From assembly GCA_965213925.1 (NCBI GenBank), contig OZ243927.1, forward strand, positions 128,001 to 192,000: DNA of 64,000 nt. The letters are read 5' to 3'. The notes under the pieces were generated by a model, which made no database searches, was not told where the DNA came from, and was given only the letters and a program-made list of their open reading frames with translations. The position numbers and the translations under genes are program-made. Shown here in pieces: positions 17,303 through 63,973 of the stretch (its first letter is position 1; every line of letters begins with the position of its first letter). Origin of the DNA: Trueperaceae bacterium. GTDB taxonomy: Bacteria; Deinococcota; Deinococci; Deinococcales; Trueperaceae.

Positions 17303-17303
<1 letters not shown>
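16860..17303 (-). CDS. DUF1641-like (YjgD/YrhD-type) protein associated with formate dehydrogenase
   Basis: GTG start overlapping the fdh stop (TAGTG); AKAI...PPGITALLGKL.DKEVRRGL. Confidence 0.75.
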
Positions 17304-20280
<2,977 letters not shown>

Positions 20281-23027: not shown

Positions 23028-23313
23028 CCGTCATCTCTACAAGTGCTTCGCACTGCGGACTGATGTCACCAAAGTAGCAGATTAAGGTGCGCATAAAGTA
23101 GTGCAAGAACGGTTTTTGGAACACACCTCGCCGAGTGGACGTCAGAATGAGATACTCAAGTTAAGGTGCTACAGATGAAGGGGGCAAATTATGGACGCTC
23201 GAGCCTCCTATGCAAGTTTGTAAGACTCGAGCCCCACATCACGTTACCCTCACCAACTTTTGCGTTAGGATGAAATCAATGATGCACGTTCGTTTCAACT
23301 TTTTAGGGGACGC

Positions 23314-24698: not shown

Positions 24699-25520
24699 AT
24701 GGAGTCTGGACTGCCTGTACTGACTGTAGGACAGTATCAACTAGCCTACAACGCCTTGTCATTTGCGATCGCGGCAATGGTCGCGGGCGCGTTTTTCTTT
24801 ATTCTAGCGCGTCCCTATGTCGGCGAGAAGTACCGCTCATCACTACTTATCTCTGCTATCGTCGTAATTATCGCGGCGTACCACTATTTCCGCATCTTTA
24901 ACTCTTGGAGCGACGCCTACGCCTTCGAGGGCGGCGTTTACATGCCGACGGGCGAGCCCTTCAATGACCTCTACCGCTATATCGACTGGCTCCTGACTGT
25001 GCCGCTTCTCTTGACCGAGACCGTAGCTGTGCTGGCGCTGCCGCGCGGAAAGTCCGGCTCGCTCATCGCCCGTTTAGCGTTCGCCGCCGTGCTGATGATC
25101 GCGCTCGGCTACCCCGGCGAGATTCTGGACCCGCAAAATCAGTTCTGGGCGCGCTTCGGTTGGGGTTTCCTCAGCTCGGTGCCCTTCGCTTATATCCTCT
25201 ACGTACTCTGGGTGGAACTCGGCAATCAGCTCGAGCAAGAGTCCGATCAGGTCAGAAAGCTCGTGCGCAATTTGCGGCTTCTGCTCCTCGGTACCTGGGG
25301 CGTTTACCCTATCGCCTATATGATCCCGATGTTTGGTCTTCAGGGCGCTTGGGCGGAGGTCGGGCTGCAACTCGGTTACACGCTCGCTGACGTGCTCGCC
25401 AAGCCCGCCTTCGGTCTGCTCATCTACGCCATCGCGCGCGCTAAAACACGCGAGGACGAGGGCGACGTGGGCGTGGGCTCAGAGGAGGGCTCACAGGCTT
25501 CCGCTGCTGCAACGGATTAA
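24699..25520 (+). CDS. Xanthorhodopsin-like microbial rhodopsin, DTE proton pump
   Basis: AYHYFRIF, RYIDWLLTVPLLLTE (D-T-E), WGFLSS, DVLAK (retinal-binding Lys); 7 TM. Confidence 0.92.
   Translation: MESGLPVLTVGQYQLAYNALSFAIAAMVAGAFFFILARPYVGEKYRSSLLISAIVVIIAAYHYFRIFNSWSDAYAFEGGVYMPTGEPFNDLYRYIDWLLTVPLLLTETVAVLALPRGKSGSLIARLAFAAVLMIALGYPGEILDPQNQFWARFGWGFLSSVPFAYILYVLWVELGNQLEQESDQVRKLVRNLRLLLLGTWGVYPIAYMIPMFGLQGAWAEVGLQLGYTLADVLAKPAFGLLIYAIARAKTREDEGDVGVGSEEGSQASAAATD

Positions 25521-32270: not shown

Positions 32271-32274
<4 letters not shown>
31105..32274 (-). CDS. metX: Homoserine O-acetyltransferase
   Basis: ICHALTGS, GGSMGGMQ, RFDANTY, HGHDAFL. Confidence 0.92.
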
Positions 32275-34942
<2,668 letters not shown>

Positions 34943-35225
34943 CTAGTCAGCATTTCAGGGTTTTCCTGAAGTCCAGTCAAGCTGACCATGTAATCCAGTC
35001 ATACCCCATACGGGGCACAGGGCTGGTTACGCAGTCTCCCGCTTACGAAGTTTTCACGAATGCGAAAGGGAACGAACGGTCTTGCGAAGCAAACGAACGG
35101 TCTGAGTTACTGGTAAGTCAAGAACAAAGCAGCCCGATTCTGAGTTTTTATACGCTCAGCAATCGAACTGCTCCAAACATTCGTGCAAAATAAACTTGTA
35201 TGGAACCGCGTTTCAACGTCATCTC

Positions 35226-35345
35226 CTTATCTCTCTCGAGCCTAACTATCGTAGTTCGCGTCTCGAGTTGGAGGGAGCACCCGCTTACATGAAAGCTGGT
35301 TGCTGCAACGTCGCCGGGCCAAATCCCTCGGTTGCTCTGGATAAG
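35226..35345 (-). ncRNA. SAM-I (S-box) riboswitch
   Basis: Minus strand CTTATCCAGAG...GAGGGATTTGGCCC...GCAACC...GGTGC...GATAAG, upstream of the met genes. Confidence 0.9.
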
Positions 35346-35482
35346 TGCCACCTCTTGAAAAGTGGTATGGAAAATTAGAACATACTTGCTTAGGGGTTTG
35401 CAAGGGCTTTACGGTTTAGGTTCAGGGCTACCGCAAAGTCAGGAGCTAAGGAGCTTAGGGAGGTAAGCACGGTTCCAGCCTG

Positions 35483-55865: not shown

Positions 55866-56747
55866 ATGTTTGAAAATTTTGATTTCAGTTTGTTGGATGA
55901 TGAAAACTTTAAGGAAGACTCCGTAAGAGAAGAGATTATTGTTCCTATTGTTAAGCGGTTAGGTTATAGCGCATCTGGAGAAAACAAGATTATACGTAGC
56001 AAAGCATTATCACACCCTTATTTATCAATAGGTTCACAGCGAAAAAAACTGTCACTTGTTCCTGATTATCTTTTTTTAGTAGATGGGAAGCCTTATTGGG
56101 TACTAGATGCTAAATCTCCGAAGGAAAACTTGCTAAAAAGCAAGCACGTTGAGCAAACTTACAGCTATGCTATCCACCCTGAGGTGAGGGCAAGATTCTA
56201 TGCCTTGTGCAACGGTAAAGAGTTTCTACTGTACGAAATCAACAGGTTCCACCCAGTTTTACATTTTTTAGTTAGCGATATACAAGAGCATTGGGAGCAC
56301 CTCTTTAGAATTCTCCATCCTAGATATTTAGCACATACAGAAGTGGTTGAGTATCAACCAGATTATGGCTTACATCTACAGAGGTTAGGCTTTGAAACAG
56401 GTTTTAGGCTCATGCAAATGCGTATCCACACAGATTTCTTCGGTAAAATTGCTGATAATCAATACACAACTATTACAGCAACTGAATGGGAAGGACAACT
56501 TTACGCAGTTTCTTTGGATTTTGACGAGTCCCAACTCAAGCAGCTTATAGAAATACTGCCTGAGAATTTGGCTAAAGACTTAGTGAACGTTCTAATGCGC
56601 CAGCCTTTTTATACTACGCCGAACCAAAAAGAATTTCGATTCGGTGCTATTGCTGATCTCGGTAGCTTGATTCATAACAATGCTGAAGAATCTTACAGAC
56701 CATTTGAGGTTGTTGAATTTTTACCTTACTTGATTGATGAGTCTTAG
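55866..56747 (+). CDS. Stand-alone type I restriction HsdR N-terminal (PD-(D/E)XK) domain protein, low GC
   Basis: EDSVREEII, PDY...VLDAK, Q..SYA, LCNG motifs. Confidence 0.75.
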   Translation: MFENFDFSLLDDENFKEDSVREEIIVPIVKRLGYSASGENKIIRSKALSHPYLSIGSQRKKLSLVPDYLFLVDGKPYWVLDAKSPKENLLKSKHVEQTYSYAIHPEVRARFYALCNGKEFLLYEINRFHPVLHFLVSDIQEHWEHLFRILHPRYLAHTEVVEYQPDYGLHLQRLGFETGFRLMQMRIHTDFFGKIADNQYTTITATEWEGQLYAVSLDFDESQLKQLIEILPENLAKDLVNVLMRQPFYTTPNQKEFRFGAIADLGSLIHNNAEESYRPFEVVEFLPYLIDES

Positions 56748-56775: not shown

Positions 56776-57008
56776 ACGTAAATCCTCAACCACACCACAG
56801 CCTGTAAGAACCTAGCTAACACCATAGATGAGGTCATAGACGACCACACCCCCTCCTCATCACCAAAGGCAGCGACAAGGCTGTGGTCATGATGAGCTTG
56901 GACGACTAGAACGCTTGGCAAGAGACGATGCTCTTGCTGCGCAGCCCCGCCAACGCCGAACGCCTCTTAGAAGCGACTCGAGACTTTGAGAAGAGAAAAT
57001 CTAACTGA
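56776..57008 (+). pseudogene. yefM: Decayed Phd/YefM antitoxin
   Basis: ACG instead of ATG, TAA at codon 2, a frameshift and an internal TAG; reads KNLANTIDEVIDDH...AVVMMSLDD*NAWQETMLLLRSPANAERLLEA. Confidence 0.8.
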
Positions 57009-57012
57009 GCTG

Positions 57013-57045
57013 CATATCGTGGCGTTGCGGTATCACGACTCGAGC
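57013..57045 (+). repeat. Array repeat copy 1 (yoeB 3' tail ending CTCGAGC)
   Basis: CATATCGTGGCGTTGCGGTATCACGACTCGAGC. Confidence 0.9.
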
Positions 57046-57089
57046 TAATGACCTCTTCCGTCTGATGTTTTATGCGCTAGAATACCCAC

Positions 57090-57326
57090 GTGCCTACGGT
57101 CTTACGCATCGGACCCTACAGATTTTTCTTCTACGCGAACGAAAATGACGAACCTGCTCATATCCACATTCAGCGAGACCGTGCCCTAGCGAAGTTTTGG
57201 CTTAGACCTGTTTCGTATGCTAGCAGTACGGGTTTCTCAGCTCGCGAGTTGTCCAAATTGCGTAAACTTGTAGAGGAGAACCGAACGACCCTCGAGGAGA
57301 CTTGGAATGACTTCTTTAGCCGCTAA
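57090..57326 (+). CDS. DUF4160 family protein (TA-like)
   Basis: MPTVLRIGPYRFFFY.NE..EP.HIH...AKFWL.P. Confidence 0.85.
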   Translation: MPTVLRIGPYRFFFYANENDEPAHIHIQRDRALAKFWLRPVSYASSTGFSARELSKLRKLVEENRTTLEETWNDFFSR

Positions 57327-57573
57327 TCTTGTCCTTGCTGACGCTGTCGAATGTACAGACGACGAAATTATCGTTTCTTTATCCGATGGGCGTAGCTTGT
57401 CTGTTCCTATCGTCTGGTTTCCCCGCTTAGCGAACGCGAGCCCTGCGGAGCGTGCCGATTATGAACTTTTAGGTCGCGGCGAGGGTATCCACTGGGCGCA
57501 GGTGGATGAAGATATCTCAGTCGCTGGACTTTTAGCGGGCAAGCCTTCCGTTGAGTTTAGGCAGAGCAACTAG
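57307..57573 (+). CDS. DUF2442 family protein (partner of DUF4160)
   Basis: LSDGRSLSVP..WFPRL, GIHW..DEDISV. Confidence 0.85.
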   Translation: MTSLAANLVLADAVECTDDEIIVSLSDGRSLSVPIVWFPRLANASPAERADYELLGRGEGIHWAQVDEDISVAGLLAGKPSVEFRQSN

Positions 57574-57601
57574 ATTTGCCGTGTTCGAGGAGATAAGCTC
57601 G

Positions 57602-57634
57602 CGTACTGTGGCGTTGCGGTATCACGACTCGAGC
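57602..57634 (+). repeat. Array repeat copy 2
   Basis: 30/33 identical to copy 1; weaker yoeB similarity extends back to 57574, directly after the DUF2442 stop. Confidence 0.9.
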
Positions 57635-57774
57635 CGACCTCCGTTCGCAAAAGATGGTGTAGAACACTTTATGGGTTTCTCGAGTAGATAGCAGAAGGTT
57701 TCTCGAGCCCCTATAAGTGCGTAACTCTCATCTGCATACGGCGTATTCGAGACTCTTGTAGAATCAAAGAACAG

Positions 57775-59478
57775 ATGGCAACGGTTCTTCTCAACACAAG
57801 TACGGCTACCTTGAATGAACTCATCAGCAACGGGCGCGTGTTTAGGGTTCCGCCGTTCCAGCGTGACTACTCTTGGACAGAAGAAGAGTGGGAGGACTTA
57901 TGGCTTGATATTCTGGAGGTGTCAAGGGAGGAAGAGCCTTTTCACTATATGGGCTATGTGGTTTTGCAAAGCGACGGCAGTCGCAACCTCACGATTATTG
58001 ATGGACAGCAGCGAATTACAACGCTCAGTATTTTAGTGTTAGCGGTTATCAAATTGTTGGAAGATTGGGCAGAAGAAGGGGTGTTGCCAGAGGAAAATAG
58101 GTAGCGCCAAAAGCTTTTGAGAGATAGATTTATCGGTCAAACTGACCCCTCTTCGCTCATCTCTGTCAGCAAACTCTTTCTTAACCGAAACAACGATGAC
58201 TTCTATAAAAGCCGACTGTTACGCCTGCGCCCACCTAACAATATACGGAAGCTCAAGCCCTCGCAAAAGCTGCTTTGGGGAGCATTCGAGTATTTCTATA
58301 GACAGCTTAAAGATAGGTTTAAGGACCAGAAAGATGGTGCTGCGCTCACACGATTTCTGAACGAGACGGTTGCGGATAACCTCTTATTTACTACAATTAC
58401 GGTTGCCGATGACCTCAACGCTTATAAAGTTTTCGAAACTTTGAATGCCAGGGGTGTACGCCTTTCGACAACAGACCTTCTCAAAAATTTTCTCTTCTCT
58501 ATTGCCGCTAAAGGGGGCGAAGCAGAGCTTGATGAGGCAGAGAGGCAGTGGCAAAGTATCAATGATAGCCTAAGCGCAAGAGATTTCCCTACATTTTTAC
58601 GTTACTACTGGAACTCGAAACATTCCTTTCAGCGGAAGCAAACACTTTTTAAGGCTATAAAGTCAACGATTACGACCTCAGAGGGCGTTTTTAGCCTCAA
58701 CGATTTAGAAGACCTCGTGGAAGTCTACGCCGCGCTATCTCAACCTGCTGATGACCTTTGGGAGAAAGAGCAAGTCAAGTGGATAGACGCGCTTTCTCTT
58801 TTCAAGGTTAAGCAGTGCTATCCGCTTCTTCTTGCTGCATATAGAAAGCTTGATGCCCAAGAATTTACTAAACTACTAAGGTTATGCGTTGCTATCTCTT
58901 TTCGTTACAATGTTATCAGTGGATTGAATCCAAATACTCTCGAGGATGTCTATCATAGAGCAGCGATTAAGGTAAACTCTGGTCAAGTATCAAATGCTAT
59001 AGGCGTTTCTACGGAACTTAGAACAATCTATATAGATGACGAGCGATTCAAAAGCGCTTTTTCGCTAAAGACTCTACCTGTACAACGTAACCGGAAGCTT
59101 GTGCGTTACATCCTTTTCGAGCTTGAAAATCAGCTTGCTACGGCAGGGTACGACTATAAAGAAGATACTAAAGCGACTATAGAGCATATCTTACCCGAGA
59201 ATGCTCCCGAAGCGTGGGATACCTTTTTCTCACCAGAAGAGCAAGATAAAGCAACGGAAAGGTTGGGCAACCTCACTCTGCTTGAAGCACAGAAAAACAA
59301 GGAATGTGCTGACAAACTCTATGAGCAAAAACTGCCTATTTACGAAACAAGCATCTATAAGCTGACAAGCGAAAGAAGCACTTTTAGCGAATGGACACCA
59401 ACAACTTTGAAGAGCAGGCAAGAGAGATTAGCTGACTTAGCTGCAACGGTTTGGAAATCTCCCTTCAATACAAGATGA
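57775..59478 (+). pseudogene. GmrSD-like type IV restriction enzyme (DUF262 + DUF1524/HNH) with an in-frame TAG at 58102-58104
   Basis: VPPFQRDYSW, IIDGQQR, FETLNARG, TIEHILP, LGNLTLL; both ORFs in the same frame. Confidence 0.85.
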
Positions 59479-59631
59479 GCGTCCCCATACGAGGGGCTAG
59501 GCAAACCCGAAGCGCTCAAACACAACCTCTCCGGCTGGTGGTCACGGCGCATCACAGACGAACACCGGATGGTTTACCGCGTTCAAGGGGATGAATTTCA
59601 TATCGTGGCGTTGCAGTATCATGACTCGAGC
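59479..59631 (+). pseudogene. yoeB: 3' half of a Txe/YoeB toxin, ending in array repeat copy 3 (59599-59631)
   Basis: SPYEGLGKPEALKHNLSGWWSRRITDEHRMVYRVQGDEFHIVALQYH; repeat 31/33 identical to copy 1. Confidence 0.85.
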
Positions 59632-59686
59632 CAACCCTCAAACCTAGCTCGAGTCCACACTTCAAAAGTTTTCAGCCCTATTCGCC

Positions 59687-59869
59687 CTAAAAGTCGAAGT
59701 CTATCTCTTCGCCAGTATCCTCTAAAGACGCTAGAATCTCCGCGCTGACCTCATGACGCTCCCACCATGCCGTAACCTCATCATCTGACATGAGGTCGAA
59801 GTTCGGCAAATCTTCAGGGTCGGTGATGACCTTGTGGTGCGTATCGCGGCGGTTGAGAACGTCACTCAT
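59687..59869 (-). CDS. Short antitoxin-like partner of the BrnT-like toxin, apparently lacking a DNA-binding C-terminus
   Basis: LPNF...DEVTAWWERH motif; ATGA overlap with the toxin. Confidence 0.5.
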   Translation of the reverse strand: MSDVLNRRDTHHKVITDPEDLPNFDLMSDDEVTAWWERHEVSAEILASLEDTGEEIDFDF

Positions 59870-60153
59870 TGTTGTCTATTATAGCTGATTCGGTCTTGCT
59901 TGAACGCATCGAGTGAGGTCTTGAGGTAGGCTGACCCATCCGATTTGTGGATAACGATAGACCTCAAAAGCCTATCTGTGTAGGTCAGTCCTATATACAA
60001 GTAGGTAATCTCTTTCGCCTTACGGTTGCGTTTAACGAGGAAGCGGCGCAGGTTGGGATCATCTAGCGCCTCGCGAACCTCATCAGGTAGAACGCGGTGC
60101 TTCGTCCAAATTTTATCTTCAATGCTCGGCGCAATCGTCAGTTCGAACGGCAC
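59866..60153 (-). CDS. BrnT-like toxin
   Basis: KI..KH.V..DEVREAL...Y.YIG.T...RLL..I pattern. Confidence 0.6.
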   Translation of the reverse strand: MPFELTIAPSIEDKIWTKHRVLPDEVREALDDPNLRRFLVKRNRKAKEITYLYIGLTYTDRLLRSIVIHKSDGSAYLKTSLDAFKQDRISYNRQQ

Positions 60154-60218
60154 GGTTTAGACATACCATGTGCTGCGCGGCTCTGACAATCTTGAATGCT
60201 TGCTCGAGACCGTCAGGA

Positions 60219-60251
60219 ATTTCCGCTGCTTTGCGCGATTACGACTCGAGC
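60219..60251 (+). repeat. Array repeat copy 4 (degenerate)
   Basis: ...GCTTTGCGCGATTACGACTCGAGC; 23/33 to copy 1, last 11 nt identical. Confidence 0.7.
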
Positions 60252-60285
60252 CAATCCCTCCAACCCTCAGTGCTACAATGTCCCT

Positions 60286-60519
60286 ATGCAAAAACCGCTT
60301 GACACCCTTACGAGTGACGCGCTAACGCTCCCGGAAGACCAGCGTCTCACGCTTGCCCACCGTTTGCTGAGCAGCCTCGAGCCACAAGAAGCTAAAGAGG
60401 TTGAAGCGGCGTGGGACGCTGAGATTAGGCGTCGCACTCGGGCTTACGACGGAGGAGATGTGCAGAGTCTTTCTGCCTCTCAGGTCTTTCAAGAGGTGGA
60501 TGAACGCTTAGCCAAATGA
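60286..60519 (+). CDS. Addiction module antitoxin (TIGR02574-like)
   Basis: ALTLPEDQR..LAHRLL.SL...VEAAWDAEIRRR; ATG at 60286 is 6 nt after TACAAT. Confidence 0.82.
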   Translation: MQKPLDTLTSDALTLPEDQRLTLAHRLLSSLEPQEAKEVEAAWDAEIRRRTRAYDGGDVQSLSASQVFQEVDERLAK

Positions 60520-60810
60520 CGCCCCAAGTTCCTAGGCGAAGCGCGAGATGAATTTTTAGAGGCTGCAACCTGTTACGAGGAGAAAGAGGCAGGGCTCGGC
60601 GTCCGGTTTCGAGATGAGGTGGTCAGGGTCTGTGCGAGCATCCTCGCAGACCCGCTACTCTGGCGCGAACGTGAAGGCGGTTATCGGCGAGTCAACTGTC
60701 CAGTTTTCCCTTTTCATGTCGCTTATTTCATTCGTGAAGAGCGTGTCATCGTCGCCGCTATAGCGCATGGTCATCGCAAGCCGAACTATTGGCGAGAACG
60801 GCTTGAGTAA
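60516..60810 (+). pseudogene. RelE/ParE toxin with a +1 frameshift in a C run at 60522-60525
   Basis: ATG at 60516 is out of frame with KFLGEARDEF..A..YE...GLG.RF...FPF...IAHGHRKPNYW. Confidence 0.78.
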
Positions 60811-60811
60811 A

Positions 60812-60844
60812 GATATTGTAGCGTTGCGCTATCATTACTCGAGC
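60812..60844 (+). repeat. Array repeat copy 5
   Basis: GATATTGTAGCGTTGCGCTATCATTACTCGAGC; 27/33 to copy 1; translates DIVALRYHY. Confidence 0.85.
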
Positions 60845-60878
60845 TAACTATCAAATCCCTGCGTGCTAAAATTTAATG

Positions 60879-61087
60879 ATGACACGCGAAGAGGTCTACC
60901 ACACCGACCCTGAGACTTTAGGCGGCACGCCCGTCTTTATAGGGATACGTGTGCCGGTCCAGACCTTGCTCGATTACCTCGAGGGCGGCGACACCCTGGA
61001 TGATTCTTGGACGGTTTTCCCGGTGTGAGCCGTGAGCAGGCGGTCTCTTTTCTCGAGCTGGCAAAGGACGCTCTCTTAGCGGCGTGA
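60879..61087 (+). pseudogene. DUF433 antitoxin-like gene with a 1-bp deletion near 61005
   Basis: TDPETLGGTPVF.G.RVPVQTLLDYLEGG.TLDD(shift)FLDGFPGVSREQA. Confidence 0.8.
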
Positions 61088-61254
61088 AAGAGATGTTGTA
61101 GGGCGAAACTGTAGACCGGAAGACGCAACGCTTGTTTTGGTTTATTTTTCATGGGACAACAGCAAGCATAGAAGCGTGGCGAGACACTTCTTATACGAAA
61201 TTGCACAGTTTACTTACCCTAGCTGAGGGCGTTAGAGCTTACCATCATAGATGG

Positions 61255-61295
61255 GCACGGCTTAGTTTTGCAAACTAAGCCGTGCAACCTCGTAT
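61255..61295. repeat. Palindromic repeat with a degenerate copy near 662-703
   Basis: GCACGGCTTAGTTT-TGC-AAACTAAGCCGTGC; 61275-61295 matches 683-703 at 20/21. Confidence 0.75.
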
Positions 61296-61296
61296 T

Positions 61297-61430
61297 ATAC
61301 CCTTTCCGGTTAAATACGAAATTTATCTCGTATTTAACCCGAGCGAATGCGAGTAGAAACCGCTACGGATTCCGGTGAGTAACGGAAAAATGCGGATGCA
61401 TTTTGTAGTGGATTCATCCGGAATCCGTAT
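61297..61430. repeat. Deinococcus SRE/SNR-like small structured repeat
   Basis: TACGGATTCCGG / CCGGAATCCGTA 12-bp IR; internal GGTTAAATACGA / TCGTATTTAACC hairpin; CCGAGCGAATGCGAGTAG core. Confidence 0.6.
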
Positions 61431-61469
61431 TAGCCGTCAACTTGTAGCGGAGAGCGTTTCCGCACATTA

Positions 61470-61504
61470 AGGAAGCCCCGCTCGAGCCTCGAGCGGGGCT
61501 TCCT
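61470..61504. terminator. Strong hairpin downstream of rpsA
   Basis: AGGAAGCCCCGCTCGAG-C-CTCGAGCGGGGCTTCCT, a perfect 17-bp IR. Confidence 0.7.
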
Positions 61505-61600
61505 GTTACTTGGCTTGTTGCACGCAACTGTTATCTCACAATATGCGTACCGGTCAAGGGTTTGCTCAGTTTAGCGCGTCCATGACCAGGAATACCTCAT

Positions 61601-63973
61601 CTACGCCTCAGAGGTCTCTCTTTCGGCTTCTTCTTGCGAATCCTGCTCGCCTTGCTCTTGCTGCGCCGGACGCCGCCCTTGTCGGAAAGCGGCGGTCAGC
61701 ATCGCAGCGGCTTCGGCGGCGTCGATAGCGTTCTCGGGGTCTTCGGACTCTCCGGAAGAGGTCTGCTCAGCTTGCGGCGCGGCTTGTTGCGCGGCTTGTT
61801 GCGCGGGCTCTTGCGCGGGTTCTTGCGCTTCGGTCTCCTGGGTGTCAGCTTGCGCGGGAACTTGCGCTTCTAATTCCTGCTCGCTCACCTCGGCGACCTC
61901 TTCGACCTCGGCGGTCAAGGGTTCACTGCTCGGCTGCGTATCGGGCATGGAGGTCTGCTCTTGTGCCTGCGGACCTTCCTCGCTCTTCTGCTCTTCGGAG
62001 CCACCCGTATCCCCTAAGCCAAACTGCGCGAAGAGGTCGGCGTAGACGTCACCCAACTTGGTGGTGGTCTTCGCGCCCGAATCAGAGGCGGCGTAGGAGT
62101 AGTCGTAGTCGATGCCCTGGCTGCGGCGGCCGCCCCGGCGACCTTTACGTCCGCCGCCACGGTTGGAAGGTGCGCCCGAGGGTGCGCCCATGCCCATGTC
62201 ATCGCCTGCGGAGTAGGGTAGGAGGCGCTTGCGCGACAAGGACGCGCGCTGCTCGATGGGGTCGATGTTGAGGATAACGGCGGTGACTTCGTCGCCTCGG
62301 CTGAAGTGCTGCGAGACGTCTTCGATGTGCTCGTGGGCTAGCTCGCTGATGTGAACCAAACCTTCGATGCCCTCTTCGATCTCCATGAAGACACCGAACT
62401 CGGTCATACCTGTGATGGGTCCGGTGATCTCGGTGCCGGGCGGGAAGCGGTCGGGCAGGCTGCTCCAGGGGTCGGGCTGCGTCTGGCGCAGACCTAAGGA
62501 GATGCGCTGCTGGGCGACGTCGATTTTGAGGATCATCGCCTCGACGTCTTGACCTTCTTCCAAAACCTCTTTCGGATGGCGGATGCGCTTCGTCCAGCTC
62601 ATTTCAGAAACGTGGATAAGCCCCTCTAAGCCAGACTCGATCTCGACAAACGCGCCGAACGGGGTGAGGTTCGTGACCTTACCCTCGACCTTTTGACCGA
62701 TGCTGAAGTTCGCTAGCACATTCTCCCAGGGGTCGGCGCGGAGGGACTTCATAGACAGGTTAATGCGCTCGCGCTCTAGGTCCATATCTAAAACTTCGAC
62801 GCGGACCTTCTGACCGACTTCTAAAACCTCTTTAGGGTGGTTGAAGCGTCCGTAGGAGATTTCGCTGCGGTGGACTAAACCGTCGATACCGCCCAGGTTG
62901 ACGAACGCGCCGAAGTCGGTGATTTCAACGACTTCACCCTCGAGCTTCGCGCCCGGCTCCAACTTGCGGAGCGTCTCCTCTTTTTGCCCCGCGACCTCTT
63001 CTTCGATGATGCTGCGGCGCGAGATGATGACGCGGTTGCGCTTGCGGTTGAGTTCGATGATGCGCACTTTGAGGCGCTTGCCGACGTAAGGCGCGAGGTC
63101 GTTGACGCGGCGCACATCCACCTGGCTCGCGGGCAAGAACGCGCGCACGCCTAAATTCGCGACCAAACCGCCGCGCACCTTTTCGACGATTTCGACCTCG
63201 ACGGGCATCCCTTTGTCGTAAATATCTTGCAAGAGGTTCCAGGCGCGTTCTTGGTCGGCGCGTTTCTTGGACAAGATAATCGTGTTGTTCGGAATGTCCA
63301 CACGAATAGCGTAGACTTGCAGCTCATCACCGGGCTTGAAGTACTTGGCGGCCTCTTCGGCGTTGGCTTCGAATTCGAAGAGCTGATTGTAGGGAACCAG
63401 ACCCTCGATCTTCGCGCCGACGTCCACGACGAGACCGTCTTGCGACAACATGATGACGGTGCCCGTGGTGAGCGTGCCCCTATGGATGGGCTTGCGGGCG
63501 AGCTGCTCGTCACTAGCCGCCATAACCTCTTCCATCGTCATGTTGTTGCCGCTGTCGTCGGCGCTGTCAGCACTGTCCGCCACGCTTGCGATCTGCTCGG
63601 TGGCGTCGGCGACCCCTTCAGACGTTTCAGAGGTCACAGCGTTCTCGCCCTCTGCTGAGGTTCGAGGTGCGGCGTCGCTCGTTATCCGAACGCTTCCGGT
63701 ATCTGCGTCGGCTTGGCGGCTCGTTTCGGCTACATTTTGAGTCGTGTCGTCTTGAGCTGCACTGTCTTGAGCTGCACTGTCTTGAGCTGCACTGTCTTGG
63801 GCTGCACTGTCTTGAGCCACATCGCTAGAGGTTTCTACGGGAGCCACTGCCTCGCTTACACCCTGCTCAGCATCCGCAGATGGGGTCTGTTCAGAACGTT
63901 CGCTCGTGGCTTGGTCGGTGGTGGAGACGCCTTCTAGGGTGTTGTCTCCAGCCTGGTTTAATTTATCGTCCAT
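61601..63973 (-). CDS. rpsA: 30S ribosomal protein S1 with long acidic extensions
   Basis: Five S1 domains ([33 protein letters not shown] etc.); AGGAGG RBS. Confidence 0.95.
63749..63817. repeat. 15-bp tandem repeat encoding (QDSAA)n in rpsA
   Basis: GTCTTGAGCTGCACT, about 4.6 copies. Confidence 0.9.

Follow-up and report, generated by a model that had tools for sequence, protein, structure and literature searches.

Possible scars of repeated insertion at a yoeB toxin-gene terminus in the herA-rpsA island of a Trueperaceae bacterium

The studied window, i.e., the whole 64,000-nt stretch at positions 128,001 to 192,000 of contig OZ243927.1 from a Trueperaceae bacterium (assembly GCA_965213925.1), has a G+C content (GC) of 57.4% and carries an island of toxin-antitoxin and restriction genes that extends from the herA stop codon (55773) to the rpsA terminator (~61500). 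The GC of the island varies between 38 and 58%, compared with 60-61% in the flanking genes. Five direct repeats within the island, each of them the 3' end of a gene for the toxin YoeB (hereafter, tails), delimit four modules of unrelated genes, and a pseudogene of the antitoxin gene yefM heads the array. The array is composed of the following features, where the extents of the tails are those obtained by gapped alignment to copy 3.

56776-57008, plus strand: pseudogene of yefM (antitoxin of the Phd/YefM type), frameshifted and interrupted by in-frame stops
57006-57048, plus strand: tail copy 1, YoeB residues 74-86 (ELHIVALRYHDSS), then TAA
57090-57326, plus strand: DUF4160 gene of module 1, open reading frame (ORF) intact, Pfam E-value 2.3e-17
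57307-57573, plus strand: DUF2442 gene of module 1, intact, with its native C-terminus and stop, Pfam E-value 6.6e-21
57575-57635, plus strand: tail copy 2, 61 nt with indels, CGA at the stop position
57775-59478, plus strand: GmrSD / HEC-06-type type IV restriction gene (module 2), with a native C-terminus
59482-59634, plus strand: tail copy 3, YoeB residues 37-86, 150 nt, 55.6% GC, CAA at the stop position
59645-59655, minus strand: inverted 11-mer GACTCGAGCTA, 16 nt after copy 3 and beside the inverted module 3
59687-60153, minus strand: module 3, inverted, a 95-aa BrnT-like ORF (59866-60153) and then a 60-aa ORF (59687-59869)
60217-60254, plus strand: tail copy 4, 38 nt with a 4-nt gap, CAA at the stop position
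60286-60519, plus strand: TIGR02574 / Unstab_antitox antitoxin gene (module 4), Pfam E-value 3.3e-12, TIGR02574 E-value 7.5e-8
60520-60810, plus strand: ParE-family toxin gene (module 4), C-terminal domain complete
60812-60847, plus strand: tail copy 5, IVALRYHYSS and then TAA, with the conserved Tyr retained in this copy alone
60876-61087, plus strand: DUF433 gene, frameshifted near 61004-61028, Pfam E-value 2.8e-9 over residues 10-43

Matches to a 33-nt segment of the tail were found at 57013, 57602, and 59599 (0, 3, and 2 mismatches, respectively), with a chance expectation of 0.00 (100 shuffles). With two weaker copies added by a repeat finder at 60228 and 60821, the family has five members of 28 nt with 82-100% identity. 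The spacings between the copies are 589, 1997, 620, and 593 nt, and all five tails are in direct orientation. An nhmmer profile constructed from the five copies retrieves only these five in the 64-kb window (E-values between 8e-12 and 3.7e-9), the next match having an E-value of 1.8. An earlier reading of this DNA from its letters alone (hereafter, the sequence-only reading) had reported five copies of a 33-mer; all five are present, although they are not uniform 33-mers, since copy 2 spans 61 nt with indels and copy 4 is shortened by its gap. The tails form the sole dispersed repeat of the window outside intact genes. A dispersed repeat of the miniature inverted-repeat transposable element or repetitive extragenic palindromic type was rejected for the window, as no copies lie outside the island.

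The tails are yoeB 3' ends. Copy 3 matches PF06769 (E-value 1.8e-19, profile positions 34-79 of 80) and TIGR02116 (E-value 2.8e-18) and is 92% identical to P0001, an intact YoeB homologue, which bears out both the assignment of the repeat to the YoeB C-terminus, HIVALRYH(D/Y), and the retention of about 150 bp of yoeB in this copy, as proposed in the sequence-only reading. The nearest intact YoeB homologues are 86 aa long and end in ELHIVALRYHYSS; in the YoeB frame the repeat reads HIVALRYH(D/Y)SS, with TCG AGC as the last two Ser codons. Copies 1, 2, and 5 align to P0001 residues 74-86, 78-86, and 77-86, respectively. A tblastn search of the window with six intact YoeBs recovers only residues 37-86, 74-86, 77-86, and 78-86 plus 67-75, and no piece of residues 1-36. 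None of the copies constitutes a complete YoeB/Txe ORF (84-86 aa with a C-terminal His-Tyr). Copy 2 encodes ICRVRGDKL and VALRYHDSS in different frames as a result of a 1-nt indel, and copy 4, the most decayed (19-21 of 27 core positions), is detectable at the DNA level only.

The residue following the conserved His distinguishes two kinds of tails. It is Asp (GAC) in copies 1-4, whereas among the 120 nearest YoeB homologues it is Tyr in 111 of the 113 parsable C-termini, Ser and His in one each, and Asp in none. The conserved C-terminal Tyr of YoeB has a catalytic role. Given the Asp common to copies 1-4, their right halves descend from one already-disabled tail. Copy 5 retains both Tyr and TAA, and four of its six differences from copy 1 (over 33 nt) are synonymous third positions; it therefore derives from a separate, once-functional allele. 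The window's own 4.58-Mb contig contributes no match among the 120 YoeB homologues listed.

The only 8-nt run invariant across all five copies is ACTCGAGC, and copies 1 and 4 have 10 differences in their first 22 nt and none in their last 11. According to the sequence-only reading, strong identity always ends at CTCGAGC, which was taken as a recombination boundary. Neither point stands, as the similarity continues into the stop-codon position (TAA, CAA, or CGA), and, since the closest intact YoeBs end in RYHYSS, CTCGAGC is simply the natural end of the ORF. The small inverted repeat TCGTG...CACGA, also attributed to the core, is perfect in copy 1 only. Folds of 58 nt around the copies, on both strands, are no better than those of shuffles for four of the five copies (z between -0.07 and +1.5), and copy 5 is the only one that beats them (z -2.8 and -2.1).

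The CTCGAG hexamer is 2.7-fold over-represented in the window (91 sites vs. 33.5 +/- 6.2 expected from dinucleotide-preserving shuffles), being its commonest hexamer palindrome and fourth commonest hexamer. Since this excess is window-wide, CTCGAG is not a private mark of the array; possible causes are the codon usage of Leu-Glu pairs or the absence of a cognate restriction system. The inter-module spacers (522 nt in total) contain four CTCGAG sites beyond the tails (57673-57707, 59648, and 60203), two of which lie 23 nt apart within a duplicated GGTTTCTCGAG upstream of the GmrSD gene; these sites may represent operators or additional tail ends in decay. The sequence GACTCGAGC occurs six times on both strands of the window, namely in four tails, in the inverted 11-mer, and at 23224. 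The inverted GACTCGAGCTA may represent a remnant of an inverted tail end; taken alone, it has a non-significant nhmmer E-value of 4.9.

Most of the genes between the tails belong to recognizable families, and many of them are damaged. The yefM pseudogene that heads the array, as the sequence-only reading had it, is represented by two PF02604 pieces (profile positions 23-44 and 46-72 of 74, E-values about 3e-3 each) with a TAG between them, so that the domain is complete to position 72. DUF2442 homologues are 88 aa long and have their C-terminus at the same residue as the island copy. The GmrSD gene (GC 44.3%) is interrupted by an in-frame TAG at 58102-58104 and matches Pfam GmrSD_N (2e-23), GmrSD_C (1.6e-25), and the PADLOC profile PDLC04154 (positions 1-109 and 117-566 of 569). 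The ParE protein read over 96 aa matches PF05016 with an E-value of 1e-5 (profile positions 6-88 of 89); its frame has no start codon before 60619 and is therefore frameshifted near the start. Together with DUF4160, DUF433, and Unstab_antitox, these earlier cargo assignments hold, whereas the BrnT-like call for the 95-aa ORF of module 3 is below the cut-off (BrnT_toxin Pfam E-value 0.018; Atlas lead 0.94-0.95), and the 60-aa ORF has no family match. Since no tail follows the DUF433 gene, it may belong to the native right flank and not be a cassette. Stops or frameshifts are present in yefM, GmrSD, ParE, and DUF433, and the array resembles a fossil, mostly pseudogenised and probably dead for the most part. 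A scan for sigma-70-like promoters gives four sites vs. 5.9 expected, none of them ahead of a module; by eye, -10-like hexamers can be read at 57078 (TAGAAT), 60274 (TACAAT), and 60867 (TAAAAT), each 7-12 nt upstream of a start codon.

The 27-nt core is identical in copies 1 and 2 (27/27) and differs from copy 3 at two positions in each (25/27), whereas among these three copies the left 24 nt match at only 3-7 positions and the right 20 nt at 6-7; over all ten copy pairs, the right flank matches at 5-10 of 20 positions. For copies 1 and 2, the contrast between the block (27/27) and the sequence just to its left (9/16) is significant (Fisher p 3.6e-4). The left arms differ in both length and allele (GAG CTG, AAG CTC, GAA TTT). 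The proposal that each of copies 1, 2, 3, and 5 starts right after the upstream stop codon is accurate for copies 2, 3, and 5 (0-6 nt past the stop), whereas copy 1 overlaps the yefM stop. The genes upstream of the tails are complete, as DUF2442 has its native end and the domains of GmrSD, ParE, and yefM reach profile positions 566 of 569, 88 of 89, and 72 of 74, respectively. At one junction, there is a GC step from 44.3% in GmrSD to 55.6% in the adjoining yoeB fragment. For copies 3-4 and 4-5, similarity between the flanks is marginal, as 29 and 21 of 500 shuffles, respectively, do equally well. The presence of 3'-only fragments, the sharp-edged block, and the shared Tyr-to-Asp change argue for recombination at the tail rather than independent decay, and we infer that such recombination produced the array. 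The sequence-only notion of the tail as a reusable recombination site survives to this extent: direct yoeB 3' ends bound unrelated modules in a pattern that points to recombination.

Homologues of the cargo were traced in other genomes. The DUF2442 protein recurs at 97-99% identity on contigs of 66,851, 288,004, and 2,193,870 nt, none of which is among the 120 best GmrSD matches (down to 48% identity), suggesting that the cargo may vary among relatives. Intact YoeBs of 86 aa (P0001 and P0006) also map to the 66,851-nt contig and to one of 1,173 nt, contigs being equated by equal size. This suggests that in those relatives the DUF2442 module adjoins an intact yoeB, as serial insertion would predict for the leftmost copy. 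The DUF2442 cargo has named relatives in Meiothermus and in a 'Deinococcota bacterium' (75-78% identity). A scan of 185,579 species genomes with GCNTTGCNNTAYCAYNAYTCGAGC gave two loci, both being chance matches in long unrelated ORFs without a YoeB gene. A blastn search of plasmids with the whole array yielded 25 records, all of them plain yoeB or DUF262 genes at 72-78% identity, and no related array. A tblastn search of plasmids with P0001 gave 811 records, 766 of which match the gene over at least 80% of its length; neither the 40 records listed nor the ten most frequent genera include Deinococcota, and no related array was found.

We read the herA-rpsA island as the fossil left by units that were inserted one after another at the 3' end of a resident yefM-yoeB locus, with a probability of about 0.5. 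Each incoming unit would have been either a GmrSD restriction gene or a toxin-antitoxin pair of small size, together with a promoter-proximal spacer and a short yoeB-3' arm of its own, and its recombination would have taken place inside the final ~27-33 nt of yoeB. One more direct tail would be added by every insertion, which would account for five tails around four modules; at the left end, the tail adjoins the yefM pseudogene, with the body of yoeB missing. Afterwards, this body would have been lost, and most of the modules would have gained stops or frameshifts. A core shared up to the stop codon, unit-specific sides, and n+1 sites for n units are read as serial insertion. Such a layout corresponds to attL/attR duplication at a gene 3' end followed by tandem accretion, as the direct repeats of the target 3' end lie in gene orientation and end at the YoeB stop position. 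The enzyme is about equally likely to have been a dedicated recombinase encoded elsewhere or RecA-type recombination over short homology.

A number of observations weigh against serial insertion. No integrase, resolvase, or transposase was found among the 40 largest ORFs of the window or the ORFs of the island, in agreement with the sequence-only reading, and there is no tRNA or tmRNA target in the window. The tails share no fold, and no dyad of the tyrosine-recombinase type was found in them. For a single family of att sites, yoeB arms ranging from about 36 to 150 nt are unusual, and the modules, at 0.5-1.9 kb, are far below the size of known integrative elements. At the left end, a 43-nt tail fused to the yefM pseudogene stands in place of an intact yoeB, and copy 5, which should be the displaced native end and the oldest scar, displays no amino-acid decay. 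The CTCGAG enrichment could by itself help to conserve the tail end. On the comparative side, the collection scan revealed no related array, and proteins were assigned to one contig of a relative by equality of contig size only.

Several other histories could have produced the same arrangement. An unlikely one is a graveyard of several yefM-yoeB operons that were eroded by ordinary deletions, with gene conversion of the last 27 nt and no special mechanism of insertion. It agrees with the decay of most island genes, with copy 5 being a separate once-functional allele, with the left arms of copies 2 and 3, which are both YoeB-coding and only about 67-77% identical, and with the co-occurrence of YoeB and DUF2442 in relatives. 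On the other hand, it needs four deletions, each ending 0-6 nt from the stop of an intact gene and all sparing the last 27 nt, while no 5' piece of yoeB survives anywhere in the window. Conversion tracts of 27 nt beside flanks of ~60% identity, as in copies 1 and 2, are implausible, and five paralogous operons of the same subfamily within 4 kb would be unusual; of the 811 plasmid records, 766 hold a match to at least 80% of the gene. Local rearrangement at the CTCGAG palindrome, or illegitimate joins that shuffled one yefM-yoeB locus with no imported units, is very improbable. The window-wide abundance of CTCGAG, its 15 sites in the array vs. 5.5 expected (P 6e-4), and the bracketing of the inverted module by the sites at 59648 and 60203 would suit such a history, and for module 3 an inversion between these two sites is indistinguishable from insertion in inverted orientation. 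Nonetheless, the differences in left-arm alleles and module GC, the duplication of the 3' end only, and the native gene ends beside the tails are left unexplained.

It is also quite improbable that the array is a live, dedicated cassette platform, integron-like in function, in which an outside recombinase recognizes the ~27-nt tail with the core ACTCGAGC. The same low standing applies to its fuller version, in which the co-opted yoeB tail (~27 nt, with ACTCGAGC at its end) would be the attachment site of an undescribed cassette platform of Deinococcota, and to the accompanying proposal that a recombinase from another part of the 4.58-Mb chromosome would capture, invert, and excise minimal promoter-bearing toxin-antitoxin and defence modules, each with its own tail, the platform being unrelated to attC/IntI. 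The invariance of ACTCGAGC, the nearly intact last 11 nt in the most diverged pairs, and the four extra CTCGAG sites within 522 nt of module boundaries (0.66 expected, P 0.005) would all suit this reading, as would modules that are tight at both ends like integron cassettes, an inverted module adjoined by an inverted 11-mer of the tail end, and cargo unlike that of close relatives. Set against these are the absence of a recombinase among the ORFs inspected within 64 kb, the lack of a shared fold or dyad, and the state of the cargo, as only one of the four modules is both unbroken and firmly supported. Constraint on the site is relaxed, as shown by copies 2-4, which have lost the stop codon, and by the decayed copy 4, and no genuine match to the pattern was found among the 185,579 species genomes. 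Finally, an assembly artefact, in which alternative strain paths were chained through a short shared repeat, is highly improbable. The copies do share only 27-33 nt, yet they are not identical to each other, and the window proteins are found on a single contig of 4,584,497 nt, which points to a finished chromosome and not a fragmented bin. Repeats of this length are also below the final k-mers commonly used in assembly.

Among known systems of modular gene capture, integron arrays and clusters of attC sites lacking an integrase (CALINs) comprise compact units in one orientation, many of which are toxin-antitoxin modules with their own promoters. The attC sites are imperfect palindromes of about 57-141 nt that form a hairpin on one strand and end in GTTRRRY. 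The array is similar to a CALIN in that its compact modules are separated by a repeated site and no integrase was found nearby. Nonetheless, the integron-like character assigned to it in the sequence-only reading is not upheld, as the tail, unlike attC, is a coding remnant with no conserved hairpin, its only core GTT belongs to GTTGCGG (with C at an R position), and no gene for the tyrosine integrase IntI, which in an integron lies with attI beside the array but is not needed in a CALIN, was found among the island ORFs or the 40 largest of the window. The pdif (Xer) modules of Acinetobacter plasmids are small, often encode toxin-antitoxin pairs, including BrnT/BrnA, and have sites of ~28 bp, with the host recombinase encoded elsewhere. 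These sites are dyad-symmetric for XerC/XerD and alternate in orientation, whereas all five tails are direct and have no conserved dyad; no dif profile was run.

Closer parallels are provided by elements that accumulate at the 3' end of one gene. In the ICESt1/ICESt3 family, tandem accretion of integrative elements and cis-mobilizable elements (CIMEs) takes place at the fda 3' end, where decayed elements keep attL and attR after loss of the integrase and new arrivals enter an existing att site (PMC5704250). The array differs from these tandems of integrative and conjugative elements and CIMEs in that its target is a toxin gene that is no longer intact, its arms are about 36 to 150 nt long, its units are single modules of 0.5-1.9 kb rather than decayed elements of many kilobases, and no integrase is present in any unit or was found within 64 kb. 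The ssrA islands of Dehalococcoides are arranged in tandem downstream of one gene and bounded by direct repeats of its 3' end, and some of them lack an integration module (PMC3146451). As in these islands, the repeats deviate from the native gene at a conserved position (here, Asp instead of Tyr). The Dehalococcoides islands have a uniform repeat of 20 bp, a serine-recombinase module (dsiB) in 16 islands, and an intact ssrA (PMC3146451); here, the target is destroyed and no recombinase was found in the window. In the tycheposons of Prochlorococcus, successive integrations at the same site push older elements inward, and the islands are strewn with partial tRNA targets and degenerated elements, much like the tails here (bioRxiv 10.1101/2020.12.28.424599). 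Tycheposons have tyrosine recombinases, tRNA targets, and excision demonstrated by polymerase chain reaction (bioRxiv 10.1101/2020.12.28.424599), whereas here the target is a toxin gene and no recombinase was found in the window. Titles and abstracts recovered in literature searches describe neither such an array, with a toxin-gene tail as a repeated attachment site, nor CTCGAG enrichment. The earlier statement that the array is not recognised as a described system was too strong, as direct repeats of a gene 3' end between serial, partly integrase-less elements are known. The known kind to which the array most likely belongs is that of gene-3'-end direct repeats from serial insertion, whereas the toxin-gene target and the minimal integrase-less units are unusual.

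The left edge of the island is occupied by one further gene.

55866-56747, plus strand: stand-alone HsdR-N-like gene (PD-(D/E)xK-type, 293 aa), the first island gene after herA

Its Pfam HSDR_N match is below the cut-off (E-value 4.3e-5), PADLOC reports the N-terminus of a type IIG restriction endonuclease (2.3e-5), and Atlas gives 0.99 to HSDR_N clusters. With a GC of 0.382 and no yoeB tail upstream or beside it, this gene appears to be a separate foreign insertion. Elsewhere in the window, the best solved-structure matches of RuvB are 1ixs/1hqc/8efv (494 bits) and that of HerA is 7f6d (607 bits). These entries are from Thermus thermophilus and Deinococcus radiodurans and, taken with the named relatives of the DUF2442 protein, make the placement in Deinococcota by the sequence-only reading a reasonable one.

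At the right edge, approximately 500 nt between DUF433 and rpsA (61088-61600) contain no gene call and no Rfam match; they include two hairpins, one perfect and of 14 bp (61255-61285) and the other of 18 nt (61305-61342), as well as a terminator-like 17-bp palindrome on two CTCGAG sites (61470-61504). The adjoining rpsA (61601-63973, minus strand) encodes five S1 domains with long acidic N- and C-terminal extensions, the former containing five tandem copies of a 15-nt repeat for AQDSA (63734-63823). The only Rfam match in the window is an S-adenosylmethionine riboswitch (35224-35347, minus strand, 64.5 bits) upstream of two tandem paralogous Cys/Met pyridoxal phosphate enzyme genes (32271-34891, minus strand), which have a common 134-nt stretch of 79% identity. 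A formate-dehydrogenase-like molybdopterin oxidoreductase gene (17303-20280, minus strand) is split into overlapping ORFs in different frames (18376-20280 and 17303-18430), and the Molybdopterin domain spans the break, which is either a frameshift or a sequencing error. A bacteriorhodopsin-like gene is located at 24699-25520 on the plus strand (PF01036, E-value 2.8e-41).

If serial insertion at the yoeB 3' end is the true history of the island, a toxin gene can act as a landing site for other addiction and defence modules, and units as small as one toxin-antitoxin pair can accrete in the manner of integrative islands, with arrival at the site being accompanied by loss of the resident toxin. 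This would provide a simple route to small defence islets, for which a gene-tail repeat would serve as a sequence tag in finding them. If, moreover, a dedicated recombinase exists, the array would represent a second, independent invention of a cassette-capture platform.

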